This document shows, in pieces, positions 135 through 25,255 of a stretch of DNA of 42,031 nucleotides. The notes under the pieces were generated by a model. That model searched no databases, was not told the origin of the DNA, and was given only the letters and a program-made list of their open reading frames with translations. Where the stretch lies: contig JARGFH010000034.1 in the NCBI GenBank assembly GCA_029210695.1, positions 1 through 42,031 on the forward strand, given 5' to 3'. The translations under genes and the position numbers were made by a program. The first letter of the stretch is position 1; each line of letters opens with the position of its first letter. Source of the DNA: Acidimicrobiia bacterium (GTDB lineage Bacteria > Actinomycetota > Acidimicrobiia > Spongiisociales > JAHEDJ01).

Positions 135-1085
135 CTAGCCCCCGCTGCCGGTCTCCCCAGCCGGAGGCTCGGTCGGAGCATCGGAGGGGGCCTCTGCGGG
201 GACGATCAAGCCGCAGGCGATGAGCGTCTCCTCGGCCGGCGCTCCTCCGAAGCGGATTCGTTCGAAGGCGGTGACGGCGCGGAGTTCTTCATCGCTGAGG
301 TCGGCTTCGAAGCCCGGCATACCACCCTGGACGGGTTTTGCCTCGGCGCCGTACGTGCTGCCGACGGCAACGCTCCAACCGTCCGAGCCGAGGGTGATCC
401 ACTTGATGTGGTCGTCACAAGTCGGCCAGGTGACGATCACTGCCCCGCCCGCCATGGCCGGGCCGGTGCCGCCCTGGCCGTTGGCGCCGTGACACGATGC
501 ACACTGCGCTCCGGCGGTGTACACCTCCTGGCCGAGGGCGAGCAAGGATGCAGCTTCCGCGCCGCCGCCCCCGCGGCCCTCGAAGGGAGTGCCATCACAG
601 TTCACGAGGGAACCATCAAACGCCACCTCGAGGCGGCCGCCGTCACCGCAGGCGACTCCGTTGGAGTTCACGACCAGGTAGAGCAATCCGAAGAGTGGGA
701 TCACCAGGAAGGCGGCCACCATCCAGGGGGAGAAGGCCGAGCGGCGCCCGACCGTCTCAGCCATGACGTGGGCAGCGGTGGGCGTGATGGGCGGCGCCTC
801 TTCAGCGGACTGCTGTGCAATCGCTGCGGTTGGTGGTTGCTCCTCCAACTTCGGGGGAGCTTCGTCCGGGCGGGATTCCTCGGGAGACGGAGCTCGAGAC
901 GGCTGAATACTCTCCGCCGGCTCAGTTGCAGCAGGCTGCGGCGGAGGTGCTCCACCGGTCCAGGCAGCCAGGATCTCTTCGGGTGACGATCCGGTCGCGG
1001 CGGCGCGAGCCTCCGCCGACCTGCGGATGAGCGCTTCGGATGCTCCATATTGCCCGGCGAGAGTGGTGATGTGTTCGTTGCTCAC
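135..1085 (-). CDS. Membrane-anchored monohaem cytochrome c with N-terminal helical module and Pro/Ala linker
   Basis: GTG at 1085 overlaps the upstream stop (GTGA). One TM helix (WMVAAFLVIPLFGLLYLVV), CASCH haem motif and GGMPGF distal Met. Confidence 0.85.
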   Translation of the reverse strand: MSNEHITTLAGQYGASEALIRRSAEARAAATGSSPEEILAAWTGGAPPPQPAATEPAESIQPSRAPSPEESRPDEAPPKLEEQPPTAAIAQQSAEEAPPITPTAAHVMAETVGRRSAFSPWMVAAFLVIPLFGLLYLVVNSNGVACGDGGRLEVAFDGSLVNCDGTPFEGRGGGGAEAASLLALGQEVYTAGAQCASCHGANGQGGTGPAMAGGAVIVTWPTCDDHIKWITLGSDGWSVAVGSTYGAEAKPVQGGMPGFEADLSDEELRAVTAFERIRFGGAPAEETLIACGLIVPAEAPSDAPTEPPAGETGSGG

Positions 1086-1897
1086 TTGGATTCCAGGAGA
1101 TAGTCGACGAGGTCCTCGATATCGCCGGCGGACAGGTATCCGAACGAGGCATGTTTGCTCCCGGCCCTGAGGGCCTCCGGATCCTCGAGATAACCGGTCA
1201 GCCAGACAGGATCGTCGGTCGGCGGGCGGGATCCGATGTGGGTGAGATCTGGTCCGTTGCGCCGGAGACCGGGGACCAGCGGACTCCCAGACAGCGTGAC
1301 GATCCCGAGGTCGGCGTCGGTGACCACCGGCCGGACCTGCTGGGTGTGGCAGAACGCACAACCCTGAGCCAGATAGACATCCCGGCCGTGTTCGGCGCCG
1401 GCCGACAGAACGATCGGATCCACCGCATCGAGCACCTGGGCATTGCCGGCCGAGGCGGGAGCGATGACCGCGGCAAAGAACATGATGGCGAAGAGGGCTA
1501 TGGCGCCGAGGAGCAGCGAGCTGAGTGTCCCGCCCGGCATCGGCGCTGGCTCATCCATCGCGACCGGCGCAGAGAGAACGGCTGCCGCAAGCGGGGTGGG
1601 TGCCGGTGGAGCTTCGGCCGGGACGGCTTCCGGTTCCGGTCGCACTACGGCCTCTTCGGACTCTGGCTGATCAGTCGCCTCGACCTCGACGGGTTCGGGA
1701 GTGATCGCCATCGATTCGGGCGCTTCGACGACGGCCGGGGTCGAGGCTGCCGGCGGTGGACTGCCGCCGGCCCAGGCGTTCAGCACAGCCTCGGTAGCGG
1801 CTCCCTGGGCGGAGGCACGCGCCGCCGCCGAGCGCTGAATCAGGGCGGCAGAAGCACCGAAGCGCTCGGCGAGGACGTCGACGACTTCCTTACTCAC
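1082..1897 (-). CDS. cbb3-type oxidase subunit II-like (CcoO/FixO-like) monohaem cytochrome c
   Basis: GTG at 1897 overlaps the upstream stop. TM helix followed by GRDVYLAQGCAFCHTQQVRP...RRNGPDLTHIGSR, which matches CcoO motifs. Confidence 0.85.
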   Translation of the reverse strand: MSKEVVDVLAERFGASAALIQRSAAARASAQGAATEAVLNAWAGGSPPPAASTPAVVEAPESMAITPEPVEVEATDQPESEEAVVRPEPEAVPAEAPPAPTPLAAAVLSAPVAMDEPAPMPGGTLSSLLLGAIALFAIMFFAAVIAPASAGNAQVLDAVDPIVLSAGAEHGRDVYLAQGCAFCHTQQVRPVVTDADLGIVTLSGSPLVPGLRRNGPDLTHIGSRPPTDDPVWLTGYLEDPEALRAGSKHASFGYLSAGDIEDLVDYLLESK

Positions 1898-3317
1898 CTT
1901 CGGCCTCCGCGGGAATGAGGACCTCGTGGGCGATCGGCGTTCCAGAGGTAATGGTCCTGTAGATGACGTAGCCGTGCACGAGTTGACCGACGAAGGTGAT
2001 GAGAACACCGACCAGTGCGAGGGATCGCAGGAGGGAGATGGCGTCGAGAGTCTGGGTGAAACCGTCTCCGGTGTTGACGTATGCGCCGCTGTACGTTGCG
2101 CCCGTCCAGGTGAACCCGGCAACCAGACCGGTCAACCAGAGGAACACCGAGGTCGACGTCACTCCGATCATGGTGAGACGGAGGTGCCATTCGGCCAGGC
2201 GGTCATCGTAGAGATCCCGGCCGAGCATCCGCGGCAGTGCGGCATAGATGAATGCGGCGGCAATCCAGCCTCCGATTCCGAACAAGAGGAAGAACGACGT
2301 TCCGTCCCACCATGCGGTGAGTCCGACTATCGAGGCGACCGACCGGAACCCGGCGAGGGCCGAGAGCGCGATCGGAACCGGTAGCAGAGCGGTGGCGGCC
2401 AGCACGAAACGCAAGGGCACCGACGATCGCACCAGGTCCCACCGGCCGCGCACAGTGGCGGTGGCGTTGACGAACGCCGTGATGGCTACCACGACGAGTA
2501 CGAGACCCAACACGATCGCTGAGGTTTCGAGCCAGTCAGGTGCAGGACCGTGGGTGAATCTGGAGTATCCGGATGCCCCTCCTGCGAGGGCGAGTGTCCA
2601 GAAGCCGATGCGGGCGATCTGTTCGCTGAACAGCGGTCCCTCCGTCAGCTTTGGAATGAGGTAGAGCGCGATGCCCAGCGCGGCGCCGACGATCCAGAGA
2701 TAGTGGAAGGCTGCCGTAGTGAATGAAGACAGTAGAGAGACACCTACCGGGTTGAGACCGGGGAGATTGGACACGCCGGCAATGACGGGCAGCCAGACAA
2801 TTGCTGCGGCCGTGTACAGCAGAGATGCGGGCGGGGTAATTCTCGATCTGGATCTGAGCGTTGCGGTGACGACGAACGCCGGGACTACGAGCCCCGCCAG
2901 CAGGAGAAAGTCCGCCCACTGTGGGAACTCGAACAACTCGAAGCCATCACCCGCGCCAAGGCCTATGGCTCCCGTGCCCAGGAGGACGACACCGGCCAGG
3001 TACCAGACGTTCAAGCCGGCGAGTCTTCTGTAACGGAGCGGGGAACCACCGAGTCGAGGAACGAGGTAGTAGGCAGCACCGATCAGTGTCGGAGTGAGCC
3101 ACCCGAACATCGTGACGGCAGCGGCCATTGGACGAAGTCGTCCGTACGTCCAGAACCCCAACCCATCCAGGAACGCCGGGAAGACGCCCTTGATGAATTG
3201 CACCAACGTGAGGAATCCTGCCAGGAGAAGGAAGGCTGTCCCTAACAACAGGTGTCGTCGAGCGACCGGGTCGCTGTCGATCGAAGAGGCTGAGTTGTGG
3301 TGCGTCTCAGCGACCAA
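1890..3317 (-). CDS. cbb3-type oxidase subunit I-like (CcoN-like) protein lacking the His ligands
   Basis: TTG at 3317 after GAAGGGA. About 12 TM helices. Retains YGRLRP, YYLVPRL, YLIPK, PDW and LPRMLGRDLY..LAEWH, but the canonical ligand histidines are absent. Confidence 0.8.
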   Translation of the reverse strand: MVAETHHNSASSIDSDPVARRHLLLGTAFLLLAGFLTLVQFIKGVFPAFLDGLGFWTYGRLRPMAAAVTMFGWLTPTLIGAAYYLVPRLGGSPLRYRRLAGLNVWYLAGVVLLGTGAIGLGAGDGFELFEFPQWADFLLLAGLVVPAFVVTATLRSRSRITPPASLLYTAAAIVWLPVIAGVSNLPGLNPVGVSLLSSFTTAAFHYLWIVGAALGIALYLIPKLTEGPLFSEQIARIGFWTLALAGGASGYSRFTHGPAPDWLETSAIVLGLVLVVVAITAFVNATATVRGRWDLVRSSVPLRFVLAATALLPVPIALSALAGFRSVASIVGLTAWWDGTSFFLLFGIGGWIAAAFIYAALPRMLGRDLYDDRLAEWHLRLTMIGVTSTSVFLWLTGLVAGFTWTGATYSGAYVNTGDGFTQTLDAISLLRSLALVGVLITFVGQLVHGYVIYRTITSGTPIAHEVLIPAEAEGE

Positions 3318-3425
3318 CGCGGGTCCCTTCAGGTCGTTGTGGCGACCAGAGACTAATGGATGGTCGGGGTAGGTGCCGCTCAGGGGACGCGCGACGCGAT
3401 CGTCACATGTGTTGAACCGTCGGCA

Positions 3426-3448
3426 GCAATTGGCAATTGGCAATTGGC
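3426..3448. repeat. Heptamer tandem repeat (GCAATTG)x3
   Basis: Read directly in the divergent intergenic region. Confidence 0.9.
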
Positions 3449-3587
3449 TCAGGCGACGACCGAATCCGTGACGAGCAGGCGGATCACGGTCTGGCTGTGA
3501 GGCGACTAAAGTCCCGCTGCCGGAAGGAAGTGCTCGGCTAGGGTCGACCTGCCCCGGCACCGAAGCGAGTTTGAGGGCGATATCGCA

Positions 3588-4214
3588 GTGCACCGTCTTA
3601 GTCAGCTCGACGACATGCAGAGGAGGCGGCTGGGTTCCGCTCTGTTCTCGGTTGGGCTCTTCCTCCTCGCCTTCGGCGTTCTGTTCGCCCATTACTCCGG
3701 GTTTCCGGAAGGGGAGCGCGTTGACTATTTCGGTTGGTTCCCGCGCGGCTGCATGCTCGGCTCCGAGCGCTGTGTTCCCTGGTCCACCGGCGGCCAGCTC
3801 ATCGCGGCGGCCGGTTCGCAGCTCGCCATCGCCGGCGCTCTCCTCCTGTGGGTCGCCAATCAGAGGATGACCTGGGCGAGGGCCGGGTTTGCCGCGCTGC
3901 TGACGTGGCTCGAATTCGTGATCATCTTCGGCATCGTTCCGTCGGAGTGGCTCAATCTCAGCCAGGGACCGCTGGAGCTGACCAGACAACGAATCGCTCT
4001 CACCATTCCCTCCTGGCTGGTCCTTGGCAACGATGTATCGATCAGTTGGGCTGCCGTGAAGGATGCCATCTCCGGTGGGTACAACCTGGGGGTGCTCGGT
4101 GCTGCAATCGTCTTCGCGTTCAAGATCCAGGATTGGGGCAAAGCGAAACCCAAGGCCGTAATTGTCGAGAAGACTTCACTGTACGGCCGGCCTCTCACGA
4201 GGGGAGAGCGCTGA
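3588..4214 (+). CDS. Hypothetical membrane protein (about 4 TM), first gene of the Rieske/cytochrome b operon
   Basis: Hydrophobic helices. Its stop overlaps the ferredoxin ATG (TGATG). Confidence 0.75.
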   Translation: MHRLSQLDDMQRRRLGSALFSVGLFLLAFGVLFAHYSGFPEGERVDYFGWFPRGCMLGSERCVPWSTGGQLIAAAGSQLAIAGALLLWVANQRMTWARAGFAALLTWLEFVIIFGIVPSEWLNLSQGPLELTRQRIALTIPSWLVLGNDVSISWAAVKDAISGGYNLGVLGAAIVFAFKIQDWGKAKPKAVIVEKTSLYGRPLTRGER

Positions 4215-4666
4215 TGGCCCGCACGGACGCCTGGATCGAAGCGCCTCCATTTCGCGACGATTATCAGTTGACGCTCGTGGACACCGACACCGTTCAGAAG
4301 GCCGTCCGCCCCAAGCAGTTCCTCCATATCGACCAGGCCGAGTGCATTCTCTGCGAGGGATGCGTTGACATCTGCCCGTGGAAGTGCATTCACTACCTCT
4401 CGCTCGATGCTATCGACGAGGCGTTCGGAGTCGAGGATCCGTCAGAGGAAGAGGGCGCCTTCGGGTTCTTCGTGGTTGATGAGGAGGCATGCACCCGTTG
4501 CGCACTGTGTATCGATCGGTGTCCAACGAACGTGATCACCCTCGGCAAGTTCGCGGGATCGGTTTCAGACAGTGCGCGAGAAGCGGGCGTCCTGGAGGCG
4601 CCCTGGAAAGTCGACACAGGGCAGCGGGATTTCAAGAACGGGTACGCCTACGGCGTCCGCTGGTAA
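4214..4666 (+). CDS. 2x[4Fe-4S] dicluster ferredoxin
   Basis: [12 protein letters not shown] and [12 protein letters not shown] motifs. No signal peptide. ATG at 4214. Confidence 0.92.
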
Positions 4667-4682
4667 CGGGAAGGTACGGAAC

Positions 4683-5471
4683 GTGGCGAACGGGAACGGC
4701 AAGACTGGATTGCTGAACACGGTGCAGGAGAAGGCGACGGAACTCGGCGACCGCGTAACGAGCAGTCAGGCCTGGGACTCGGTGTTCCGGCCCGGATCAC
4801 CATTCAAGAAGGGCCACACAGATAGTCCCAGGAACCGGTCGTACGTGGTGATGAACAACGTGCTGTATCACTTGCACCCGGTGAAGGTGAAGCGCCACGG
4901 CGTCCGTCTCTCTTATACGCTCTGTTTGGGCGGCCTGAGCTTCTTTCTGTTCATTCTGCTCACGATTACCGGCATCTTCCTCATGTTCTACTACCGCCCG
5001 ACCGCCGAGGCCGCCTACGTCGATGTGGCCGCCCTCTCGACCAGCGTCGCCTTCGGGTCGCTGGTCAGGAACATGCACCGGTGGGGGGCTCACCTCATGG
5101 TTCTCACCGTGTTCCTGCATATGAGCCGCGTGTTCTATCACGGCGCCTACAAGCCCCCTCGCGAGTTCAACTGGGTGATCGGCGTTGTGCTGTTGCTCCT
5201 AACTTTGTTGCTGTCGTTCACCGGGTATCTCCTTCCGTGGGATCAGCTCGCCCGCTGGGCAGTGACGGTCGGCACCAACATGGCCGGGTTCGTTCCGATC
5301 TTCGGCGACCAAGTGCGATTCGCATTACTGGGGGCGGCCGATGTCTCGGCCGACACATTGCTGCGCTGGTATGTCCTCCACGTGCTCTTCCTGCCCTTCA
5401 TCATCGTTGTGTTCATGGCCGTACATTTCTGGCGAGTCCGCAAAGACGGCGGCATCTCAGGCCCGCTGTAA
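4683..5471 (+). CDS. Cytochrome b6-like (split cytochrome b, N-terminal part)
   Basis: YTLCLGG (haem ci Cys), [36 protein letters not shown] and C-terminal GISGPL. GTG at 4683 follows GGAAGG. Confidence 0.93.
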
Positions 5472-5480
5472 GGAGCTCCA

Positions 5481-7178
5481 TTGGTCGATATCCCAGAAGA
5501 ACTCCTCCGGCGATCTGCCGCAGCACGAGCTGCCGCCACGGGCGTACCCGTCGATGAGGTGCTGGCCGAGATGCGAGCTGCGGTAGGGAGCACCGCCTCG
5601 GCGCCACGGGTCGAGGACGCTCCTACCGACGGCGAACCAGAACATCCGACGACGCTGTCCGACGATCTCCTCACTCGCGAGGCGGCGGCCCGGGCCAGGG
5701 TCCTGGGCGTCCCGGAAGCTGATGCCGTGGCGGAGTTGAAGGGCGAGAAGGAACTCGTCATACCGCCGTCCGCCAAGAAGCAGGAGGAGAAGGCGCCGGC
5801 GGAATCGCAGGCTCCGGTAGAAGCACTGGTCGAGAATGAACCGCCGAGCGCTCCTGTGGCAGATACACCGGCAGTGCCCTTGCTCGGGGCCGGAGGCGAG
5901 ATCGATTACGCAGCGGCGGCGCTGGCAGTGGGTATGCCCGAGGCGCTGCTCAAGCGAAGCGTAGAAGCCAAAGCAAAGGCCAGGGGTCTCGATCCGGTTG
6001 CCGTCCTTGCTGAGATGACCGGCGGGAGCGTCGAAACCGTGGTGGAACCCGTTGCAGTTGCGATGGAGCCGGCTTCAGAGGCTGCCCCCCCTACACCCGC
6101 CCCAACCGTGGCAGGTCCTGCCGGCGAACTCGATTGGGCGGCGGCTGCGAGTGCGGCCGGTATGCCGGAGAAGTTGTTCAGGCGGAGTGTGGAGGCGAAG
6201 GCGAANNNNNNNNNNNNNNNNNNNNNNNNNNNNNNNNNNNNNNNNNNNNNNNNNNNNNNNNNNNNNNNNNNNNNNNNNNNNNNNNNNNNNNNNNNNNNNN
6301 CGGCGGTGGTGCTGGCCGAGATGACCGGGCAATCGGTGCCTGCTGCTCCGGCGGTGGCGGCGGCTGCACCGGTGGCACCGGCAGTCTCTGCAGCTGCGGC
6401 GGTGAGTGCCGGTGAACTCGATTGGGCGGCGGCTGCGAGTGCGGCCGGTATGCCGGAGAAGTTGTTCAGGCGGAGTGTGGAGGCGAAGGCGAAGGCGAAG
6501 GGGGTTGATCCGGCGGTGGTGCTGGCCGAGATGACCGGGCAATCGGTGCCTGCTGCTCCGGCGGTGGCGGCGGCTGCACCGGTGGCACCTGCAGTCTCTG
6601 CAGCTGCGGCGCCGTCTGCTGCCCCTGCTGCGGCCACGGCCACGATCCCCAAGGATGTCCGGCCCCAGCGCTTGCTCACCGTGGTCAAGGCCAGGGCAAT
6701 CCAGCAGGTCAAGGCTGAGCCGAGCGACAAGGTCAGCACTTGGCCGCACTTGCTCCTCATCGAGTTTGTTGCCCTGCTGGCGGTAACGGCACTGCTAATC
6801 GTCATGTCGGTTGTGATTCAGGCGCCATTGCTGGAGGCGGCCAACGCCAACGTCACGCCCAATCCATCTAAAGCACCCTGGTATTTCCTCGGACTCCAGG
6901 AACTGTTGACCTACTTCGATCCCCAGATCGCCGGTGTGACCGTGCCGACGATCATCGGTTTGTTCGGCTTCATGGCTATCCCTTACCTCGACCGCAACCC
7001 GTCGAACAAGCCGGCGGATCGCAAGTTCGCCATCTTCATGTATACGTTCTTCATCATGGGCGCAGCAACACTGACGATCATCGGCACGTTGTTCCGCGGA
7101 AGGGGCTTCAACTTCACCTACCCGTGGACCGACGGCATCTTCTTCGATGACCTCAAAGACTGGATCAACTTCGAATGA
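5481..7178 (+). CDS. Cytochrome b subunit IV-like (PetD-like) protein with a long N-terminal repeat region; spans the N-gap
   Basis: TTG after AGGAG. C-terminal TWPHLL...APLLEAANANVTPNPSKAPWYFLGLQELL...IPYLDRNP with 3 TM helices. About 390 aa of N-terminal repeats. Confidence 0.88.
   Translation: MVDIPEELLRRSAAARAAATGVPVDEVLAEMRAAVGSTASAPRVEDAPTDGEPEHPTTLSDDLLTREAAARARVLGVPEADAVAELKGEKELVIPPSAKKQEEKAPAESQAPVEALVENEPPSAPVADTPAVPLLGAGGEIDYAAAALAVGMPEALLKRSVEAKAKARGLDPVAVLAEMTGGSVETVVEPVAVAMEPASEAAPPTPAPTVAGPAGELDWAAAASAAGMPEKLFRRSVEAKAXXXXXXXXXXXXXXXXXXXXXXXXXXXXXXXXXAVVLAEMTGQSVPAAPAVAAAAPVAPAVSAAAAVSAGELDWAAAASAAGMPEKLFRRSVEAKAKAKGVDPAVVLAEMTGQSVPAAPAVAAAAPVAPAVSAAAAPSAAPAAATATIPKDVRPQRLLTVVKARAIQQVKAEPSDKVSTWPHLLLIEFVALLAVTALLIVMSVVIQAPLLEAANANVTPNPSKAPWYFLGLQELLTYFDPQIAGVTVPTIIGLFGFMAIPYLDRNPSNKPADRKFAIFMYTFFIMGAATLTIIGTLFRGRGFNFTYPWTDGIFFDDLKDWINFE
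6118..6611 (+). repeat. Near-identical 210-nt (70-aa) intragenic tandem repeat containing the assembly gap
   Basis: CGGCGGTGGTGCTGGCCGAG recurs at 6301 and 6511. GAACTCGATTGGGCG recurs at 6126 and 6414. Ns occupy 6206-6300. Confidence 0.9.
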
Positions 7179-8029
7179 CGGCTACCCAGATTGTCCTGGT
7201 CGCGATCATCGCTGTGGCGGTGCTGGCCGCGTTGGCGGCCTTTTCGATCGCCTCTCGAAAGGCCGGTCCTGATTGGAGAGCGGGGATGGACGGGCGCGCT
7301 CTCCGGGAGGATCGATCCAGGGTGTTGGTGGCTGCCGCCCCAGCCGTGGTGGAGGCTGACGAGGAAGAAGCCAGGGCCGAAGTCGAGGCACCCGTCGAGC
7401 CGGCCGGCGTCCGCCCGGTTGAGGTGGCCCGAATCGAAGAAGTCTCGGCAGATGAGGCCGGCGTGACGAGGCGGCAGTTCTTCAACAGGGCGACTCTGGC
7501 ACTCTTCGGAACGTTCTCGGTAGCAATGGGTGGCAGCATGCTTGCGTTCATTTGGCCCAACCTGAAAGGCGGATTCGGATCGGACATCGATGCCGGCCCC
7601 ATCGACGAGATCCGCACCCAGGTCTTCCAGGCGGACGGTTCCATTACGCCGCTATTTCGGCCGGATGCACGGGCCTACATCGTTCCCATCACCGACGAGG
7701 AGCTGGCAGGCTCACAATTCGTCGACAAGAGCCTGGCGGCCGGTGGCTTCATGGCGTTGTTCCAACGTTGCGTGCATCTGGGGTGCCGGGTCCCCTGGTG
7801 CAACACATCGCAAGGTTTCGAATGCCCGTGCCATGGTTCGAAATACAACTACACCGGGGAGTACGAGGCTGGACCGGCGCCCCGCAACCTCGATCGCTTC
7901 GTGGTCGAACTGCAGAACGATCGGTTCATCATCAAGACCGGGCAGATCATCGAGTCGCCGCGGGCACCGGAGAAGTCGGTGTCGTATCCGCAGGGGCCTT
8001 CCTGCATCGCCATCGAGAGCGCGGGGTAG
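7175..8029 (+). CDS. Rieske [2Fe-2S] protein of a menaquinol:cytochrome c reductase
   Basis: Internal Tat motif TRRQFF, CVHLGC, CPCHGSKY and GPAPRNL. There is an extra N-terminal TM helix. Confidence 0.95.
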   Translation: MTATQIVLVAIIAVAVLAALAAFSIASRKAGPDWRAGMDGRALREDRSRVLVAAAPAVVEADEEEARAEVEAPVEPAGVRPVEVARIEEVSADEAGVTRRQFFNRATLALFGTFSVAMGGSMLAFIWPNLKGGFGSDIDAGPIDEIRTQVFQADGSITPLFRPDARAYIVPITDEELAGSQFVDKSLAAGGFMALFQRCVHLGCRVPWCNTSQGFECPCHGSKYNYTGEYEAGPAPRNLDRFVVELQNDRFIIKTGQIIESPRAPEKSVSYPQGPSCIAIESAG

Positions 8030-8032: not shown

Positions 8033-9478
8033 GTGTCGGGAAGCCTCATCATTGCCATCGTTTCGGCAGCCGTGATCTCATGGCTTGCCTACATCTTGTC
8101 GGTGACAATGAAGAAGCAAGAGAATCCCGACCCCGGTCCCAACCGCCGCCGGCCGCTCTCGGATGAGAATCTGGAGACGCGGCGACTCGACCGCTGGCTG
8201 GCAGCCGCGGTTGTCTTCTCGGGGTTCCTGGCCGTCTCACTCCCGTTCTACTTTCTCACCGAGCAGAACCGCCAGGAGAGCTTCGTCGACGCTTTCGACG
8301 AAGAAGCGGTCGCCCGCGGCTCGCACCTCGTTGCCGAGTTCGCCTGCGAGAGCTGCCACGGCCCCGGGTTCGTAGGTGGAGCAGCCTCCTACGTCGAGAA
8401 GCGGAGCGACATCTCCGTGAGCTGGGCGGCTCCCGCCCTCGATGACATCTTTTACCGTTACGAGGCCGATGAAGTGCGATTCTGGCTCGTATACGGCAGG
8501 GCCAATAGCCCGATGCCTGCCTGGGGCCTGGCGGGGAATGGCCCGATGAACGATCAGCAGATCGACGATCTCATCGCCTATCTCGCCTCAATCGAGATCA
8601 GCCAGGAAGAAGCTCTCTCCAAGGCAGACACCGGAGTCACCGTGGCATTGAATCGTCTCGCCAACGCCGAAACGACCGTCGAACAGTCGGTGGCCGAGCA
8701 GGAGACGCTGATCGCGGAAATCGAGGCCGCGCCCGAGTTGTTGACGGTGGCGGAGAGTTTCGAGCAGCGCGCAGTTGCTGCCCTCGAATCCGCCGACACG
8801 GGCCGCGATACCGATGGTGACGGTATTTCCGATGTCGCGGAGACCGAGATCGCGGCGGTCACCGTCGCGGCGGCCGAGGCAGGCCTGTCTTTCGGCGGCT
8901 CGACGGTCGCTCCGGTTCTGCTGGACCCGGGCAACCCGGAGTCGACCCTCGGTGTGCCCGACCTACAGGCTGCTCGCACTGCGGTCTCCTCCCTCTCCTC
9001 GTTGGCTACCAACCTCCGCACAACGGCCGAGAATCAAGGCCCGCTCCTGACCAGGGCGCAATCCGGCCTCGACTTCCTCGTCGCTGCCCGGGACAACCAG
9101 CTGTGGGCCGTCGATGTCGAGCAGATCGCCGCGGTTACCTTCGGTGGCAACCGCGACGATGCAGAGCGCGCCGTCGGTTTGTTCAACTCCTACTGTGCCC
9201 GCTGCCACACGGCCGGGTATTCCGCCGGGGTCGCCTACACGGAGGAGTCCGGATCGGGCGCGTTGGGCCCGGCGCTCTGGAACGGTCGGGCGAACGTGCA
9301 GTTCGAGTCGGCGGACGACATGGTCGATTTCATCGCCAACGGATCCGAACTCGGCAAGGCGTACGGTGTCAACGGAGTCGGCAGGGGATACATGCCTGGA
9401 TTCGGGAAGGTCCTCACCCAGAGAGACCTCGAGCTGGTGGTTGAGTACCTGCGCGGCGAAACGCTACGGGGGTTCTGA
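8033..9478 (+). CDS. Membrane-anchored dihaem cytochrome c
   Basis: Two N-terminal TM helices, CESCH...MPAWG and CARCH...MPGFG, separated by a long helical spacer. Confidence 0.9.
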   Translation: MSGSLIIAIVSAAVISWLAYILSVTMKKQENPDPGPNRRRPLSDENLETRRLDRWLAAAVVFSGFLAVSLPFYFLTEQNRQESFVDAFDEEAVARGSHLVAEFACESCHGPGFVGGAASYVEKRSDISVSWAAPALDDIFYRYEADEVRFWLVYGRANSPMPAWGLAGNGPMNDQQIDDLIAYLASIEISQEEALSKADTGVTVALNRLANAETTVEQSVAEQETLIAEIEAAPELLTVAESFEQRAVAALESADTGRDTDGDGISDVAETEIAAVTVAAAEAGLSFGGSTVAPVLLDPGNPESTLGVPDLQAARTAVSSLSSLATNLRTTAENQGPLLTRAQSGLDFLVAARDNQLWAVDVEQIAAVTFGGNRDDAERAVGLFNSYCARCHTAGYSAGVAYTEESGSGALGPALWNGRANVQFESADDMVDFIANGSELGKAYGVNGVGRGYMPGFGKVLTQRDLELVVEYLRGETLRGF

Positions 9479-9479: not shown

Positions 9480-9845
9480 ATGCGCGAACTGTTTCGCTCG
9501 ATCCTGTCGGCCAACCTGACCTTCACGGGGATCGTTCTGACCGCCGCCTCGTTTGCGGTGTTCTTCGGCAGCGGGTACCTGCTTCTCTACACGAATCTTG
9601 GCAAACGTCTCGGGTTCCTGATCGCCGGCTCCGGTGTGTTTGGGTGGGCGACGATCAACAGCCTGCTATTCGTGCTCTATGCGCCCAGGGGGCCGCGACC
9701 TGCCGACTTCGAGGGCCTCAACGCCTGGGAGATCCGGTTGATCCCGATGACCTGGATGGTCGTATCGGCGATCCTGTTCGCCGGGTTCCTGGTGACGCTC
9801 AATCGACTCGAAGACGACGACGAGAACGTCGCGAGTAGCCCCTAG
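9480..9845 (+). CDS. Small hypothetical membrane protein (3 TM)
   Basis: ATG immediately after the cytochrome c stop. Hydrophobic sequence starting MRELFRSIL. Confidence 0.75.
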   Translation: MRELFRSILSANLTFTGIVLTAASFAVFFGSGYLLLYTNLGKRLGFLIAGSGVFGWATINSLLFVLYAPRGPRPADFEGLNAWEIRLIPMTWMVVSAILFAGFLVTLNRLEDDDENVASSP

Positions 9846-9994: not shown

Positions 9995-10624
9995 CTACCC
10001 CCGGTCGTTGCGCACGTAGTAGCCCAGGATCTGCAGTTCGGTCGACAAATCGACCCGGCGCACGGCGGCGTTGTCCAGGTGGAGCACCGTCTGCGCGAAG
10101 TTCAAGATCGACCGGATGCCACAGTCCTCGAGTTGCTGTGCGACTTCCTGGGCAACCGCAGTCGGAGTAGTGATGATGCCGATCTCGACGTCATGCTCGG
10201 CGACGTCGGCTGCGAGGTGGCGGAGGTGGCGAACCTCGAGGTCGCCGATCCTGGTCCCGACTTTCTCGGGGTTTGTGTCGTAAAGCCCGACGATGTGGAA
10301 CCGGGCTGCGCCGAAGTTGTCGTAGCTGGCCAGCGCAGCACCGAGATTGCCGATGCCGACGATCACGACACCGAAGTCCCGGGTGAGGCCTAGCGCCTCC
10401 CGGATCTGCTGACCCAGCACCGCGCTGTCGTATCCAACCCCCCGTACCCCGTGGGTGCCCAGGAACGACAGATCCTTTCGGACCTTGGCGGCGTTGACGT
10501 TGACTCGACTGGCCAGGATCTCAGATGAGATCGTTCCCATCCCTTCAGACTGGAGGGTCTCGAGTGCGTAGAGATAGAGGGGGAGTCGGGCGACCGATGC
10601 CGGCGGGATTGTGACTGACTTCAC
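9995..10624 (-). CDS. rex: Redox-sensing transcriptional repressor Rex
   Basis: IPPASVARLPLY, VRKDLSFLG, GVRGVGY, VGIGNLG and ILNFA motifs. Confidence 0.96.
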   Translation of the reverse strand: MKSVTIPPASVARLPLYLYALETLQSEGMGTISSEILASRVNVNAAKVRKDLSFLGTHGVRGVGYDSAVLGQQIREALGLTRDFGVVIVGIGNLGAALASYDNFGAARFHIVGLYDTNPEKVGTRIGDLEVRHLRHLAADVAEHDVEIGIITTPTAVAQEVAQQLEDCGIRSILNFAQTVLHLDNAAVRRVDLSTELQILGYYVRNDRG

Positions 10625-10701: not shown

Positions 10702-11940
10702 ATGACAGCTCCCGATGTGGTGGTCGTCGGCGGAGGGCCTGCTGGCTCTGCCGCCGCATTCTGGCTGGCGAGTGCCGGCCATTCTGTGACGCTGGTCGAG
10801 AAGAAGGCCTACCCCCGGGAGAAGACCTGCGGAGACGGGCTCACCCCGCGAGCGATCCTCCAGTTGCAGGAGCTCGGGTTCGATTTCGATGTTCCACAGT
10901 TCCACCGGGTTCACGGCTTGCGGTCGTATGCAGGAGACAATCTCAAACTCGAAATGGAATGGCCCGACCATTCGATCTATCCGAATTGGGGTGGGGTGAT
11001 TCGCCGGGCCGATCTCGATCAACAGGTGGCGCTGCTGGTCGAGAAGCAGGGAGCGACGATCCGGCAGCAGGTCGAAGCTACGCCTGTGATCGAAGACGGC
11101 CGCCTGACCGGGGTGGAGCTCAATCACAACGGCGAGACCGAGGTGCTCAACCCGAAGGTGGTCGTAGTCGCCGACGGATCGTTGAGCCGGTTCGGGTGGA
11201 GCCTCGGGACGAGCCGGCGGCGCGACTACCCGCTCGGCCTGGCTGCCCGTGGCTACTTCTCGTCTCCTCGTTCGGACGATGGCTTCCTCGAGAGTCAGCT
11301 CGACATTCGGGATGAAACCGGGGCTGCAATGCCGGGGTACGGGTGGGTGTTTCCGCTCGGAGACGGCACCGTCAACGTCGGTGTTGGGCTGTTGTCGACC
11401 TTCAAACGCTGGAAGCATGTCAACACGAACGACATGATGGCGGCCTACGTTCGTTCGGCTCCCGACTACTGGGAGCTCTCGGAGGCGTCTCAGCTCACCA
11501 AGCCGCGGGGCGGCAAGCTGACGATGGCCCTCTCCGTTGGGCCACTGGCAGGGCCCAACTGGCTCGTCGCCGGCGACGCAGCCGGGGCCATCAACCCGTG
11601 GAACGGGGAAGGCATCTCCTATGCCTACGAGACGGGCCGGATCGCCGCCGACCACATTTCGGCTGCCCTGGCCGGCGACGACCTCTCCCTGCTGCAACGC
11701 TATCCGCAGTTTCTGCAGGACACCTACGGCGACTACTACAAGATGGCCCGAATCTTTGTGAAGGCGATCGGGCAGCCTTTGGTGATGCGGACGTTGACCC
11801 ATACGGGATTGCGGTCCAAGCCTCTGATGGAATGGGTGCTCAAGGTGATGGCCAACTTGCTGGAGCCCGAGGAGAAATCGATCGGCGACCAGGCGTACCG
11901 CCTGCTCGAAGGAATCGTCAGGGCCGCCCCCCGCATTTGA
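10702..11940 (+). CDS. Geranylgeranyl reductase family protein, probable menaquinone reductase (MenJ-like)
   Basis: VVGGGPAG, YPREKTCGDGLTPRA, PGYGWVFP and GDAAGAINPWNGEGI. Lies just upstream of the nuo region. Confidence 0.88.
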   Translation: MTAPDVVVVGGGPAGSAAAFWLASAGHSVTLVEKKAYPREKTCGDGLTPRAILQLQELGFDFDVPQFHRVHGLRSYAGDNLKLEMEWPDHSIYPNWGGVIRRADLDQQVALLVEKQGATIRQQVEATPVIEDGRLTGVELNHNGETEVLNPKVVVVADGSLSRFGWSLGTSRRRDYPLGLAARGYFSSPRSDDGFLESQLDIRDETGAAMPGYGWVFPLGDGTVNVGVGLLSTFKRWKHVNTNDMMAAYVRSAPDYWELSEASQLTKPRGGKLTMALSVGPLAGPNWLVAGDAAGAINPWNGEGISYAYETGRIAADHISAALAGDDLSLLQRYPQFLQDTYGDYYKMARIFVKAIGQPLVMRTLTHTGLRSKPLMEWVLKVMANLLEPEEKSIGDQAYRLLEGIVRAAPRI

Positions 11941-13094: not shown

Positions 13095-13511
13095 TTGGAT
13101 CTGGCCGCATACGTGCCCGTGGCTTTCATGTTCCTGCTCGTGATGGCATTCGCCGCCGTCACCCTCGTTCTCTCTCGTCTCGTCTCTCCGAATCGCCCGA
13201 CTCCCGAGAAGCTTGCCCCCTACGAGTGCGGCATCGTTCCAGAGGTTGAGCCGGTCCAGCGCTTTCCCGTCAAGTTCTATCTCGTTGCGATGCTCTTCGT
13301 CATCTTCGATATCGAGATCATCTTCCTCTTCGCCTGGGCTGTGAACTTCCGTGAGCTCGGCTGGTTCGGTGTCGCCTCCGTGGGGATTTTCACGCTGCTC
13401 GTCCTCGAGACCCTCGGCTACGTATGGAAACGCGGCGCGCTCGACTGGAACGTGCCCCGCCGCGCCCGCCAGGTATCCGTCGGGACCGTCGTCGACGAGG
13501 AAGCCGCCTGA
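13095..13511 (+). CDS. nuoA: NADH-quinone oxidoreductase subunit A
   Basis: TTG after AGGAG. PYECG and [14 protein letters not shown] motifs. Confidence 0.95.
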
Positions 13512-13981
13512 TGGCTCACCCGGCCAACCCACCCGGCTTCCTGCTCGCCAACCTCGACAAGGTGAGGCACTGGGCCCAGACCCGGTCGATGTTCACCGTC
13601 ACCTTCGGTCTAGCCTGCTGCGCCATCGAGATGATGGCCACCGGGGCCGGCCACTACGATCTTGCCCGCTTCGGTATGGAGGTCTTCAGGGCGTCGCCAC
13701 GACAGGCGGACCTCATGATCGTGGCCGGCCGGGTCTCACAGAAGATGGCGCCCGTACTTCGCCAGGTCTACGACCAGATGCCGGAGCCCAAATGGGTGAT
13801 CTCGATGGGTGCGTGCGCCTCCACCGGCGGAATGTTCAACAACTACGCACTCGTGCAGGGCGTTGATCAGATAGTGCCAGTTGACATCTACATCCCCGGC
13901 TGCCCTCCCGGGCCGCAGTCGCTGATGCACGGGATTCTGACCTTGCACGACAAGATCATGAGCGGGGAGATCGCTCACTAA
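13511..13981 (+). CDS. nuoB: NADH-quinone oxidoreductase subunit B
   Basis: [20 protein letters not shown] and PGCPP motifs. Confidence 0.97.
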
Positions 13982-14514
13982 TGACAGATGATCAGGCAAT
14001 CGACGTGCAAGAAGAGAAAACTCCTTCCCGCACACTGCCCGACCAGGCGGTCCTACGGGCGATCGCCGAGCAGTTCGATGACATCGAATGGACCCTGTCG
14101 ACCGGCCAGGATGTGTTCATGGTTCCCAAGGACCGGGTGCTGGACATCGTCCAGGCGGCGAAGGATGCCGGATTCGAGTTGCTGGCAGATCTGACGGTGA
14201 CCGACTACTTCCGAGGCAGATCCCCCCGGTTCGAACTGGTCATCAACTTGTTGTCGATGCAGCACCAACTCCGACTCCGCCTCCGTGCCCCGGTCCCGGT
14301 CGAAAACGTGCATGTGCCATCGGTGGTTGGTGTATACCCGGGAGCGAACTTCTACGAACGTGAAGCATTCGATCTGTTCGGTCTGGTATTCGACGGCCAT
14401 CCAGACCTGACCCGCATCCTGATGCCGGACGAGTGGGAGGGACATCCGTTGCGCAAGGACTTCGGGATGGGGTCCGTACCGGTGCAGTTCAAAGACTCTC
14501 ATCAGGTGCAATGA
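13981..14514 (+). CDS. nuoC: NADH-quinone oxidoreductase subunit C
   Basis: EREAFDLFG, GHPDLTRIL and GHPLRKDF motifs. Confidence 0.96.
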   Translation: MTDDQAIDVQEEKTPSRTLPDQAVLRAIAEQFDDIEWTLSTGQDVFMVPKDRVLDIVQAAKDAGFELLADLTVTDYFRGRSPRFELVINLLSMQHQLRLRLRAPVPVENVHVPSVVGVYPGANFYEREAFDLFGLVFDGHPDLTRILMPDEWEGHPLRKDFGMGSVPVQFKDSHQVQ

Positions 14515-14515
14515 C

Positions 14516-15877
14516 ATGACCGACCAAAAACGCAGAGACAAGCGCCACGTCGACGTCTGGTTGACCGGCACCGAAGAGCCCGATTGGCTCGTCGACTCAA
14601 CCGACGAGGGTGCCCAGAAGATGGCGGCTCACGAGACCGCGGCTCGACTCCTCGATCAAGAGGGCCTGGTTGTAGGCGATGACCGGGTCCTGGACGAGGA
14701 TGTTGCCCCCGAAGACGAGTTGATGATCATCAACATGGGCCCCCAGCATCCCTCGACGCACGGCGTGCTGCGCCTCAACATCGAACTCGAGGGCGAGATC
14801 ATCCGTCGTTCCAAGCCGATCATCGGCTACCTGCACACCGGCATGGAGAAGACCGGCGAGGAGCTCACCTGGCTCCAGGGACCCACCAACGTCACCCGGA
14901 TGGACTACCTCGCACCCTTCCACAACGAACTCGTCTTCTCGCTGGCCGTTGAGAAGTTGCTCGGGATCGACATCCCACCTCGCGCTCTGGCCATCCGTGT
15001 TCTGATGACCGAACTGAACCGGGTGTCGAGCCACCTGGTCGCTCTGGCGACCAACGGCATGGATATCGGGGCACTTTCGATGATGTTGTACGGGTTCAGG
15101 GACCGTGAGCGCATTCTCGCCTTCTTCGAGAAAACGACCGGCTTGCGCATGAACCACAACTACATCCGGCCGGGAGGCGTCGCCGCCGACCTTCCGCCCG
15201 ACTGGCAGGAAGACATCGAGTTCATCCTCGACAAAGTCCCACCCCGGATGCTGGAGTACGAAGATCTCCTCAAAGCCAACCCGATCTGGATGGGGCGCAC
15301 CATCGGTGTCGGAGTCATCACGCTCGAGGAGTGCCTCGCTTACTCCGTGACCGGTCCGACCCTCCGGGCCGCCGGGAGCGATTGGGATCTGCGCAAGGCT
15401 TTCCCCTATTCCGGTATCGAGAACTATCACTTCGAGGTACCGGTCGGCGAGCGAGGAGACGTCTACGACCGCTATCGGGTCCGGGTCGAGGAGATCTGGC
15501 AGTCGCTCTCGATCGTCAAGCAGGCGGCGGAATCAATGCCGGAAGGCGACTACAAGACCGACGATCGCAAGGTGGCGCCGCCACCGCGAGCTCGCATCGA
15601 CGAGTCGATGGAAGCCCTGATTCACCATTTCAAGATCTACACCGAGGGATTCCAGGTTCCCGAGGGTGAGGCGTACGTGGCGATCGAGTCACCCCGGGGA
15701 GAACTCGGTGCCTACCTCGTCTCTGATGGTGGATCCCGGCCCCTACGGATGCATATGCGGACACCATCGTTCGCCAATCTGCAAGGCCTTCCGGTGATGA
15801 TGGCCGATTCGCTCATCGCCGACACCGTTGCCACGATCGCCTCGCTCGATCCCGTCCTGGGAGATGTGGACCGGTGA
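14516..15877 (+). CDS. nuoD: NADH-quinone oxidoreductase subunit D
   Basis: NMGPQHPSTHGVLRL, GYLHTGMEK and terminal GDVDR. Confidence 0.97.
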   Translation: MTDQKRRDKRHVDVWLTGTEEPDWLVDSTDEGAQKMAAHETAARLLDQEGLVVGDDRVLDEDVAPEDELMIINMGPQHPSTHGVLRLNIELEGEIIRRSKPIIGYLHTGMEKTGEELTWLQGPTNVTRMDYLAPFHNELVFSLAVEKLLGIDIPPRALAIRVLMTELNRVSSHLVALATNGMDIGALSMMLYGFRDRERILAFFEKTTGLRMNHNYIRPGGVAADLPPDWQEDIEFILDKVPPRMLEYEDLLKANPIWMGRTIGVGVITLEECLAYSVTGPTLRAAGSDWDLRKAFPYSGIENYHFEVPVGERGDVYDRYRVRVEEIWQSLSIVKQAAESMPEGDYKTDDRKVAPPPRARIDESMEALIHHFKIYTEGFQVPEGEAYVAIESPRGELGAYLVSDGGSRPLRMHMRTPSFANLQGLPVMMADSLIADTVATIASLDPVLGDVDR

Positions 15878-15932
15878 AGACTTCTCGCTTCGCTCGCAGC
15901 CGTGAATTGACCTCCGTTCCTGAGAGGGTCTC

Positions 15933-16610
15933 ATGAGCTGGCCGGCCGAGACCATCGCCCGGGCAAACGACATCATTGCTCGCTATCCGGAGAAGCGGTC
16001 GGCCGTCATGCCGCTGCTGTACATAGCAATGAGAGAAGAAGGCCGGCTCACCGATGAGGGAATGCGCCATGTGGCCGAGCTGACCGGTTTGACTCCCGCC
16101 CAGGTTCAGTCCGTCGCCTCCTTTTACGTCATGTACAAGACGGAGTCGCAGGGAAAGTACCTGGTCTCAGTCTGCAGTTCTATCTCGTGCTTCCTACTCG
16201 GCGCCGATGAGGTTCTGCACGCCGTCGAGGAAGCAGCCGGAATTCCGGCCGGCGAGGCCGACGACGAAATCGGCGTCGAGCACGCCGAGTGCATCGGTGC
16301 TTGCGGTGGCGCTCCCGCCTGTCTCGTCAACTATGAACTGGTCGAAGGGGTCACGCCGGCAAAGGCCAAAGAGATGATCGAATGGCTCCGCAATGCCAAG
16401 CCGGAGGTCATCAACGCCGATGAGCTGCAGACCCTGTTCGGCGGCAGGCGCAGCTTTGACTGGGCGATCAAGGAAGACAACGGAGCGATCGGCCCATATC
16501 CGGCGTTCCCCCCGTTTGGCACTGCAGCTCATAACACGCCGGCCCTGGAGCCGGGACGACTCGCACCGAGTGGCTCGCGACCTGCCACCTCCGAAGGGGG
16601 CGCTTCGTGA
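15933..16610 (+). CDS. nuoE: NADH-quinone oxidoreductase subunit E
   Basis: RSAVMPLL, CSSISC and CIGAC ([2Fe-2S] ligands). Confidence 0.95.
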   Translation: MSWPAETIARANDIIARYPEKRSAVMPLLYIAMREEGRLTDEGMRHVAELTGLTPAQVQSVASFYVMYKTESQGKYLVSVCSSISCFLLGADEVLHAVEEAAGIPAGEADDEIGVEHAECIGACGGAPACLVNYELVEGVTPAKAKEMIEWLRNAKPEVINADELQTLFGGRRSFDWAIKEDNGAIGPYPAFPPFGTAAHNTPALEPGRLAPSGSRPATSEGGAS

Positions 16611-17923
16611 ACCAGACCCTCGTTCTGTTCAAGCGCATGACCGAGCACCCGGCCGATTCACACACGATCGACCGCTACCTGGAGACGGGTGGGTACGAGC
16701 AAGCCCGGGTCGCCCTCGGCCGGACCCGCGACGAGCTCGTCGAACTGGTCAAGAGCTCCGGGCTGATTGGACGCGGTGGTGCCGGGTTCTCCGCCGGAAT
16801 GAAGTGGTCGTTCCTTGCTCCTGCTCGTCCTGCGTATCTAGTGGTCAACGGTGATGAGTCCGAGCCGGGCACGTTCAAGGACCGTCAGCTGCTCGAGCGT
16901 GACCCGCACCAGATGGTCGAAGGCATGATCATCGCGGCGGTTGCCAACGAGGTGCACGAAGCGTTCGTCTACATCCGGGGTGAGTACCCCAAGCCGGCTC
17001 GCCGTGTCCAGCAAGCCGTAGCCGACGCCTACGAACGCGGGTTCCTGGGCCGGGATGTCATGGGCACCGGCTATCACCTCGACATAACCGTCCACCTCGG
17101 GGCCGGCGCCTACATCTGTGGCGAAGAGACGGCGTTACTCAACAGCCTCGAGGGCCGCCGCGGTGAACCACGACTGAAGCCACCGTTCTTCCCGGCCGCC
17201 AAGGGTCTCTACATGCTGCCGACGATCGTCAACAACGTCGAGACGATCTCGAATCTCCCCCACATCGTGGAGCGAGGGATCGATTGGTATCGCGGGCTAG
17301 GACACGATGTCGACACCGGGACTTTCCTCTTCTCGGTCTCCGGTCACGTGCAGAAGCCCGGCAACTACGAGTTGCCGCACGGGATGACCTGGCGAAAGCT
17401 GATCTACGACGTCGCCGGCGGGATCCGGAACGACAACGAGCTCAAAGCCTGGGTTCCCGGCGGTGCTTCGGCTCCGTGGTTTGTTCCCTCCGAACATCTC
17501 GATCTCGAGATCACGAAGTCGGTCACCGATTCGAGCGGGTCCATGCTCGGCTCCGGTGCGGTCATTGTGATGGACGAAACCACGGATATGGTGGCGGCGG
17601 CCGAGCGCCTCGTGCGGTTTTTCGCTGAGGAGTCCTGCGGCCAGTGCACTCCGTGCCGCGAGGGCACCACCTGGCTCGACATGATCCTCCGGCGCATGCT
17701 CGACGGGGGCGGCCGGGCCGTCGATCTCGATCTGCTGTACGACGTATCGGACAATATCTCGGTCGGCGTCGGCTGGCCCCCCAAGCAGACGACCATTTGC
17801 CCGCTTGGCCCTTCGGCCGTCAGCGCCGTCAAGTCTCTGCTCGAGTACTTCCGTCCCGAAGCCGAAGCGCACATCGCCAGAGCGAACCGTGTTCCGGTCA
17901 CGATCAAGGGGTTCGGGCAATGA
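16607..17923 (+). CDS. nuoF: NADH-quinone oxidoreductase subunit F
   Basis: GRGGAGF, DESEPGTFKDR, YICGEETAL and ESCGQCTPCREG motifs. Confidence 0.97.
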   Translation: MNQTLVLFKRMTEHPADSHTIDRYLETGGYEQARVALGRTRDELVELVKSSGLIGRGGAGFSAGMKWSFLAPARPAYLVVNGDESEPGTFKDRQLLERDPHQMVEGMIIAAVANEVHEAFVYIRGEYPKPARRVQQAVADAYERGFLGRDVMGTGYHLDITVHLGAGAYICGEETALLNSLEGRRGEPRLKPPFFPAAKGLYMLPTIVNNVETISNLPHIVERGIDWYRGLGHDVDTGTFLFSVSGHVQKPGNYELPHGMTWRKLIYDVAGGIRNDNELKAWVPGGASAPWFVPSEHLDLEITKSVTDSSGSMLGSGAVIVMDETTDMVAAAERLVRFFAEESCGQCTPCREGTTWLDMILRRMLDGGGRAVDLDLLYDVSDNISVGVGWPPKQTTICPLGPSAVSAVKSLLEYFRPEAEAHIARANRVPVTIKGFGQ

Positions 17924-21591: not shown

Positions 21592-21604
21592 GAGGAGGTG
21601 ACCG

Positions 21605-25197: not shown

Positions 25198-25255
25198 TGG
25201 TTCTCGACCAGTCGCGAGTCGCGCGTCCGGCTATTCGCGCAGGGAGGTGCAACTG

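Follow-up and report, generated by a model that had tools for sequence, protein, structure and literature searches.

A ~45-residue module shared by complex III and complex IV proteins of Acidimicrobiia, a candidate cytoplasmic docking domain

The DNA analysed here (the window) is an entire 42,031-bp contig (JARGFH010000034.1) of a metagenome-assembled genome (MAG) of an Acidimicrobiia bacterium (3.9 Mb; ~63 % guanine plus cytosine, GC). Its left end carries two divergent respiratory gene sets, one for a cbb3-like oxidase (minus strand) and one representing a Rieske/cytochrome b operon (plus strand). A module of ~45 residues begins the cytochrome c and the FixO-like protein of the former and is present in five copies in the PetD-like subunit IV of the latter. 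This module is a previously uncatalogued domain and represents a new domain family absent from family libraries. We regard it, with a probability of about one half, as a cytoplasmic, tethered protein-protein docking domain; both binding as such and the nature of any ligand are inferred.

Copies of the module were detected at 951-1085 and 1763-1897 (both minus strand) and within 5481-6542 (plus strand), i.e. in the three proteins for which an earlier note, made from the sequence alone, had claimed one common motif. The two copies of the oxidase gene set belong to sequence type B (described below) and form residues 1-45 of the cytochrome c (951-1085; E-value 1.6e-21 with a hidden Markov model, HMM, of the module) and residues 1-45 of the FixO-like protein (1763-1897; 1.6e-17, 66.6 bits). 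In subunit IV, copy 1 (5481-5582; 56.6 bits) belongs to type A and has only two helices, helix 1 being absent, copy 2 (5637-5750; 53.3 bits) is diverged, and copies 3 (5895-6029; 74.3 bits) and 5 (6411-6542; 77.1 bits) are three-helix forms. The first 27 residues of copy 4 (6123-6205; 41.9 bits over profile positions 1-26) are followed by a run of N, behind which the tail resumes at ~6303. This assembly gap of 95 N (6206-6300) lies inside a near-identical tandem repeat, the DNA of copies 4 and 5 being 99 % identical, and the copy count of subunit IV is therefore a lower bound, "five or more". The repeat spacings of 288 and 210 nt suggest a real gap of ~17 nt, the reading frame being maintained either way. 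As a whole, subunit IV matched the HMM with an E-value of 2.5e-76 and six partial or complete domains, and a genome of the same genus encodes five copies in an ungapped open reading frame (ORF) of 543 residues. Tandem Repeats Finder reported no array at 5400-6800, where the repeats are too diverged or interrupted; they were revealed by a separate repeat search.

Also in agreement with the earlier note, all copies in the window are followed by a Pro/Ala/Glu-rich linker (54-63 % Pro+Ala+Glu; net charge -6 to -13) and precede the first membrane helix (669-734 and 1457-1525, minus strand; 6741-6818, plus strand). The mono-haem cytochrome c (ORF at 135-1085, minus strand; 316 residues; Pfam Cytochrome_CBB3/Cytochrom_C) is composed of the module, a linker of 72 residues delimited by composition (735-950; net charge -6), a single membrane helix, assigned from a hydrophobic stretch, and a periplasmic haem c domain with its CxxCH motif at 489-503. 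Its GTG start codon at 1085 overlaps the stop codon of the ccoO-like gene as GTGA. In the FixO/CcoO-like mono-haem subunit (1082-1897, minus strand; 271 residues), module and linker likewise precede the membrane helix and the CxxCH motif (1346-1360), and GGAGG is located ~7 nt upstream of the GTG start codon. This protein matched Pfam FixO (PF02433) with 44.8 bits (cut-off 29.6) over profile positions 47-143 of 219, corresponding to residues 240-333 of a 346-residue ORF, and its scores with NCBIfam models of the ccoO type were far below the cut-offs. Subunit IV (5481-7178, plus strand; 565 codons including 33 X; TTG start codon 5 nt after AGGAG) is built of at least five modules on linkers followed by the membrane domain, and matches the PetD profile (Cytochrom_B_C, PF00032) at residues 454-537 with 32.3 bits versus a gathering score of 20.7.

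Specificity of the module within the genome was assessed with an HMM from six copies. All search filters were disabled, and the target set comprised the 56,933 six-frame ORFs with a length of 40 residues or more. Only four ORFs matched, the next best having an E-value of 0.97; all four belong to complexes III and IV or are encoded next to them, and there was no scatter over Ala-rich proteins. A model from the subunit IV copies alone recovered the cytochrome c (5.6e-7), the fourth protein (6.4e-6) and, at rank 4, the FixO-like protein (0.15; next ORF 1.7), and a model from the two cytochromes alone recovered the fourth protein (1.2e-11) and subunit IV (4.2e-8; next ORF 0.21). The module is a real domain, neither chance nor low complexity.

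The fourth match (C94_4398_5594, minus strand; E-value 6.9e-11) was absent from the copies used for training. The protein in question (fourth carrier; contig C94, locus L001, 4395-5498, minus strand; 367 residues) comprises an N-terminal module, a linker of ~55 residues and a multi-helix membrane domain, and 13 of 31 invariant columns fall within its first 43 residues. It has no Pfam or NCBIfam family, Foldseek against the PDB retrieved nothing at E <= 0.001, and the best score of its membrane part in the ESM Atlas (0.81) was not informative. Homologues, found in Acidimicrobiia MAGs, bear no public name other than "hypothetical protein". The gene lies at the end of an operon for a caa3-type oxidase (COX2-cytochrome c, COX1, COX3, COX4), with which it converges, and its homologues are located at most 5 kb from the caa3 operon in 4/4 relatives examined. 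With subunit IV, the FixO-like protein, the cytochrome c and this caa3-adjacent protein as carriers, all four thus lie within or beside complexes III and IV. A family-less ORF of 239 residues (L001, 5591-6310, minus strand) immediately precedes the gene of the fourth carrier in the same orientation; it was not found beside the carrier in the four relatives examined.

No family was detected on the module with Pfam (E <= 0.1) or NCBIfam (E <= 0.01); searches with the module profile against all PDB sequences reached a best E-value of 0.7, and Foldseek of the module model against the PDB retrieved nothing at E <= 0.001. Full-text literature searches found no description of the module; they did not cover supplements, which may list genes under other names. 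In a public source, the module-array subunit IV proteins P0174 and P0190 are labelled "stalled ribosome alternative rescue factor ArfA", a label that is probably spurious and triggered by the Lys/Arg/Ala-rich helix. For the copy of the cytochrome c, AlphaFold2 predicted helices at residues 3-13, 17-31 and 35-42 with a predicted local distance difference test score (pLDDT) of 90.9 and a predicted template modelling score of 0.70, based on an alignment of 44 copies that includes two rows from unpublished genomes (G010 and G021). According to this model, the module is an independently folding three-helix bundle. The same three helices recur in a full-length model of the fourth carrier, in which residues 47-98 have a pLDDT <50 and the membrane domain behind the linker is of moderate confidence (mean pLDDT 72.7); the tethers are hence predicted to be disordered. 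The small helical domain on flexible tethers, belonging to no named family, that the earlier note had proposed is borne out by these searches and models.

The invariant positions of the module (Leu, Arg-Ser, two Ala and Gly) are mostly located on the central helix and may reflect helix packing plus one exposed Arg. Two sequence types can be distinguished. Type A (alignment of 30 copies), characteristic of subunit IV and of an oxidoreductase of relatives described below, ends in Ala-Glu-Met-x-Gly, and its copies at the extreme N-terminus are devoid of the first helix. Type B (24 copies), found in the cytochrome c, the FixO-like protein and the fourth carrier, starts with Met-Ser, always possesses helix 1 and ends in an invariant Trp-x-Gly-Gly. 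The median net charge is -1 in type A and -3 in type B, the range being about -1 to -3; with net negative modules, protein binding fits better than binding of DNA or anionic lipids. An interpretation as a signal peptide of the twin-arginine translocation (Tat) pathway was rejected. Tat signals lead to export and carry an N-terminal RR motif, behind which come a hydrophobic core free of charges and a cleavage site. In the module, Glu, Lys or Arg follow Arg-Arg-Ser, the hydrophobic core is absent and internal copies occur in tandem; moreover, one of the carriers is a soluble enzyme of the cytoplasm, and the N-termini remain on the cytoplasmic side.

Among the nearest relatives (12 families and 27 genera of the same order), the module was present in 41/41 genomes, or 39/39 without the two unpublished ones, usually with 2-5 matches per genome. 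An even sample of the class contained it in 77/151 genomes, including nearly all genomes of the window's order, all 35 in a family of ~1-Mb genomes and, as a weak presence, one further family; three other families of the class, sampled with 8, 17 and 7 genomes, yielded no match. Module matches were obtained in 10/301 genomes of a phylum sample, with only three weak partial matches outside the class. The one inspected, in family f51, was regarded as spurious; it lies in a soluble ORF of 545 residues, sugar-kinase-like by eye, and aligned to the last third of the profile only. By these sequence searches, the module is confined to one Acidimicrobiia order and few neighbouring families.

In a library of 1.84 billion representatives, 410 proteins matched at E <= 1e-3, and 3,247 type A and 350 type B matches were counted among the candidates scored from a collection of 90 % clusters. 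A scan of one genome per species revealed 403 encoding stretches, mostly in MAGs named "Acidimicrobiia bacterium" and in few bins otherwise labelled. Among sequencing runs, no RNA dataset with the sequence was listed, and the DNA datasets contained only 5-7 % of its words. The GC content of the fetched loci was 33-36 % in the ~1-Mb genomes versus 59-72 % in other Acidimicrobiia, and the presence of an Ala-rich module in both ranges argues that it is kept against compositional drift. Judged by size and GC content, the ~1-Mb low-GC group and the other group may correspond to Ca. Actinomarinales and its sister order UBA5794, respectively, as characterized in the part of the published account used here (PMC12008989).

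The carriers in seven relatives are again subunit IV, the FixO-like protein, the cytochrome c and the caa3-adjacent protein, with identical operon order. From the 150 best representatives in the library, 86 were analyzed with Pfam, yielding PetD (6), cytochrome c (17), FixO (10), one spurious match and nothing (52). BLAST of all 150 against the domains of the window assigned 24 to the cytochrome c, 19 to subunit IV, 10 to the FixO-like protein and 4 to the fourth carrier; only 17 of the 93 unassigned ones are at least 200 residues long. Two metagenomic proteins (P0001 and P0010) possess 7 and 3 modules, respectively, before a membrane domain homologous to the product of a small ORF in the window (9528-9845, see below), the E-values of their C-terminal domains in tblastn against this ORF being 2e-20 and 6e-27. 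Judged by sequence, carriers thus appear to be of the same few kinds everywhere: subunit IV, cytochrome c, FixO-like protein, caa3-adjacent protein, small membrane subunit and oxidoreductase.

The number of copies per carrier ranges from 1 to 7. In the window's genus the arrays are located on subunit IV; many other lineages have theirs, of 3-4 copies, on the cytochrome c. Relative G029 was initially a candidate for a module-less subunit IV, which was rejected upon detection of two degenerate, below-threshold copies; its cytochrome c carries four strong ones. Such variable copy numbers and arrays on differing carriers would, by analogy, be typical behaviour of multivalent tethered modules. In a neighbouring family, nothing of the module but its central helix has survived, N-terminally on subunit IV and on cytochrome c. 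The FixO-like and cytochrome c genes resemble each other at their 5' ends, which encode the module and its linker. Over 228-303 nt, the identity amounts to 91-99.6 % in three genomes (L029, 10242-10470 versus 11267-11495; also L032 and L022), compared with 64-69 % in four others, one of which is that of this window (64 %). The near-identity points to recent, episodic gene conversion and suggests that the two copies are at times interchangeable.

In low-GC genomes of ~1 Mb, a 2-oxoacid:ferredoxin oxidoreductase is a further carrier. The module is joined to its alpha/gamma subunit (Pfam POR, POR_N, PFOR_II), where it is located at the N-terminus, after the C-terminus or at both ends, connected by long acidic Glu/Pro/Val linkers. 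This architecture was found in 10/10 large-ORF matches checked and is shared by nine of the top 120 proteins with type A modules; three other genomes of the ~1-Mb family lack the fusion. The KorA homologue of the present genome (contig C137, 70585-72408, minus strand) carries no module. Occurrence on a soluble cytoplasmic enzyme confirms the cytoplasmic location of the module, which the earlier note had deduced from topology and which also agrees with its position N-terminal to a single helix plus haem c domain and on the N-terminus of a PetD-like protein. No other observation hints as strongly at a role of the module in recruitment instead of catalysis.

A small, strongly conserved, independently folding and slightly acidic domain present on disordered tethers, often in multiple copies and at the cytoplasmic ends of functionally related proteins, fits tethered docking. 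By attaching either to a single shared partner in the cytoplasm or to one another, the modules would keep the carriers in proximity on the inner side of the membrane, and tandem arrays would increase avidity; in some relatives, docking would also draw in the ferredoxin-reducing 2-oxoacid oxidoreductase. Several observations weigh against this reading. The nearest folds, though weak matches, are nucleic-acid-binding three-helix domains. Family f6 has modules on subunit IV alone, which weakens the idea that the copies of subunit IV and of the oxidase are invariably paired; such pairing cannot be general. Given the single-helix remnant in the neighbouring family, a short recognition peptide fits as well as a domain. 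Finally, co-occurrence yields no partner: the 2x[4Fe-4S] ferredoxin-like (Fer4) subunit of the Rieske/cytochrome b operon and the first gene of this operon either occur throughout the class or have just diverged further beyond the order, and neither distinguishes lineages with the module.

An alternative that we deem rather unlikely is capture of ferredoxin, soluble or in the form of the Fer4 subunit of the operon, by which ferredoxin reduced by the 2-oxoacid oxidoreductase would be held beside the Rieske/cytochrome b complex and electrons would enter from the cytoplasm. The earlier note had named ferredoxin as a possible common ligand; the data speak against the simple form of this proposal, and indirect support comes from the oxidoreductase fusion. 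The operon does encode a Fer4 subunit, but this subunit was detected in 137/151 genomes of the class, module-less families among them, and family f6 keeps the module with an operon devoid of the Fer4 gene. The present genome contains no match for the E1 component of 2-oxoglutarate dehydrogenase at E <= 1e-30 and, as mentioned, a KorA homologue, so that its tricarboxylic acid (TCA) cycle should produce reduced ferredoxin. Dehydrogenase loss has been reported for UBA5794 and Actinomarina, to the extent that the parts of the two sources used here describe it (PMC12008989; bioRxiv 10.64898/2026.04.03.716425). In the class sample, E1 was found in 18/77 module-bearing versus 64/74 module-less genomes, counts of related and hence not independent genomes; this rarity of E1 makes a link to ferredoxin suggestive only, confounded by kinship, and 13 module-bearing genomes of the window's order have retained the dehydrogenase. 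Furthermore, the carriers among the oxidase subunits have no obvious use for ferredoxin. Docking sites for ferredoxin are usually basic, which the module is not.

Equally doubtful appears a role during protein making, with an assembly, cofactor-insertion or membrane-targeting factor recognizing the module or its central helix, or with the module merely fixing the N-terminus in the cytoplasm. Most carriers display the module at their extreme N-terminus, the neighbouring family has retained just an N-terminal helix, and all membrane carriers presumably depend on correct N-in insertion and on the assembly of haem or of complexes. A targeting signal, however, would not be expected to recur internally in tandem, in up to 7 copies, nor to occur at the C-terminus of a soluble enzyme; the module is predicted to be a folded three-helix bundle rather than a peptide, and it is not a Tat signal.

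Still less probable is a nucleic-acid-binding domain of the helix-turn-helix (HTH) or ANTAR type, tying the complexes to DNA or RNA or acting as a membrane-tethered regulator. This possibility arises from the fold comparison. The top matches of an exhaustive structural aligner (Z 5.1-5.8; root-mean-square deviation, rmsd, 1.7-2.3 Å over 45-47 residues) were the N-terminal domain of an archaeal replication protein A (RPA; Z 5.8) and four ANTAR domains (4akk, 6wsh, 1sd5 and 1qo0; Z 5.1-5.7, rmsd 1.7-2.2 Å, 45-46 residues), and homeodomains aligned to residues 1-33 with Z 3.3-3.4, but all of these values fall below the aligner's caution line for helical bundles and may mean a common arrangement only. 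Helix 1, Gly and helix 2 moreover appear to follow HTH spacing, and arrays produced faint Pfam matches to Xre-like-HTH (PF20432; 39.5 bits summed over the repeats of metagenomic protein P0003) and HTH_23, no single stretch passing. Against this stand the lack of any ANTAR (PF03861) match at E <= 0.1 on the three window carriers or at E <= 0.01 on the fourth carrier, the lack of HTH family matches on the window proteins (E <= 0.1), the negative net charge and the many copies without helix 1, the conserved part being helices 2-3. Known regulators are, as far as can be judged, not built as tandem arrays on cytochromes or on a metabolic enzyme.

Comparably improbable is a module without any specific ligand, serving together with the acidic linkers as a bulky cytoplasmic brush (spacer, solubility aid or crowding control) or representing a selfish repeat that undergoes gene conversion and is tolerated at termini. 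In favour of this view, both the number of copies and the type of carrier are free to vary, adjacent genes share the unit through gene conversion, and the linkers are variable and highly charged. Yet positions are invariant across hundreds of sequences and a twofold range of GC content, the module is retained in streamlined genomes of ~1 Mb, and its carriers are few and related in function.

Returning to tethered docking, the reading can be extended to a "tethered respirasome", which as a whole we consider a long shot. Copies would bind each other or a hub and thereby join the Rieske/cytochrome b complex, the cbb3-like oxidase and the caa3-associated protein and, in Actinomarina-like cells, also the 2-oxoglutarate oxidoreductase, with ferredoxin made in the TCA cycle being oxidized at the Fer4 subunit. 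If true, this arrangement would provide ferredoxin-to-quinone entry into an aerobic respiratory chain, analogous to cyclic electron flow through cytochrome b6f. How aerobes that use 2-oxoglutarate:ferredoxin oxidoreductase instead of the dehydrogenase re-oxidize ferredoxin is an open question, and so is the gathering of respiratory complexes from the cytoplasmic side. One conserved domain marks complex III, two terminal-oxidase systems and a ferredoxin-reducing enzyme in abundant marine ~1-Mb genomes. Next to this physiological interest, the 45-residue module represents a clonable handle that could be expressed, structurally solved and used as bait for partners. Even if it were a lineage-specific accessory only, it would constitute a new domain family on carriers publicly named "hypothetical protein" or "ArfA".

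The remaining genes of the two sets do not bear the module. Subunit I of the haem-copper oxidase (CcoN-like; maximal ORF 1890-3989, minus strand) is very divergent, matching Pfam COX1 with 115.8 bits from ORF residue 243 onwards and the ccoN model TIGR00780 with 123 bits (cut-off 583). The Rieske/cytochrome b operon (plus strand) starts with a gene for a membrane protein without Pfam or NCBIfam family (3588-4214), which keeps the same operon position in 7/7 relatives examined. It is followed by the genes for the Fer4 subunit (4181-4666; 161 residues; Pfam Fer4 families), a cytochrome b6-type subunit (maximal ORF 4572-5471; Pfam Cytochrome_B, 163 bits), the true start of which is probably located downstream, subunit IV, the Rieske iron-sulfur subunit (7175-8029; Pfam Rieske) and a di-haem cytochrome c (8033-9478; two cytochrome c stretches in Pfam). 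The small membrane ORF 3' of the latter (9528-9845) has no family and probably encodes a further subunit of the Rieske/cytochrome b complex.

The cytochrome b6-type subunit exceeds the cut-off of NCBIfam ExtP, the b-type cytochrome of a selenite/tellurite reduction operon (305 versus 290 bits), and subunit IV matches ExtQ with a score below the cut-off. The ExtP naming model seems to capture the class-wide operon type composed of Fer4, b6 and subunit IV genes, and automatic annotation may therefore assign a misleading name. Further downstream, a gene for a Rex-type redox repressor (9995-10624, minus strand; CoA_binding plus Put_DNA-bind_N) is located between the Rieske/cytochrome b operon and a complex I operon (13424-28277, plus strand) ranging from NuoB to antiporter-like subunits, none of which bears the module.

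Among known systems, the canonical families of the carriers themselves are PetD (PF00032) and CcoO/FixO (PF02433), to which the C-terminal parts of two carriers belong, module and linker lying outside the Pfam models; the genomes searched outside the class contained no real module match. ANTAR domains (AmiR, NasR, EutV, Rv1626) share a three-helix arrangement of the same size, with the above Z values of 5.1-5.7 in the range of common arrangements, but are located C-terminally on response regulators behind a coiled coil and display no sequence-family match. Similar in design is the peripheral subunit-binding domain (PSBD; E3_binding, PF02817) of the E2 chains of 2-oxoacid dehydrogenases, likewise a helical domain of 35-45 residues between long, flexible Ala/Pro-rich linkers, which docks other enzymes of the multi-enzyme system and resembles the module at the start of the main helix (Pro, basic helix ending in Gly). 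Homology between the two is not detectable: window proteins had no match to PF02817 at E <= 0.1, this model found only two other sites in the genome (contigs C117 and C33) and no module locus, and hhalign of the module against 13 PSBDs from this genome and relatives returned a probability of 3.2 %. Unlike the PSBD, the module lacks the Gly-rich loop, possesses a third helix and resides on PetD-like, FixO-like, cytochrome c, membrane and oxidoreductase alpha proteins rather than in E2 acyltransferase chains, where the PSBD is flanked by the lipoyl and catalytic domains. Docking domains of polyketide synthases and nonribosomal peptide synthetases are likewise short helical terminal elements that let subunits find each other, as outlined in the part of the source used here (PMC9113145). 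They form matched N/C pairs on soluble megasynthases, in contrast to the module, which is carried by several membrane proteins, mostly at the N-terminus and often in tandem. Small modules on flexible linkers also recruit by avidity in the Rubisco-binding repeats of carboxysome and pyrenoid linkers and in the ribosomal L7/L12 stalk; folds, partners and context being unrelated, the analogy to the module of Acidimicrobiia is one of principle only.

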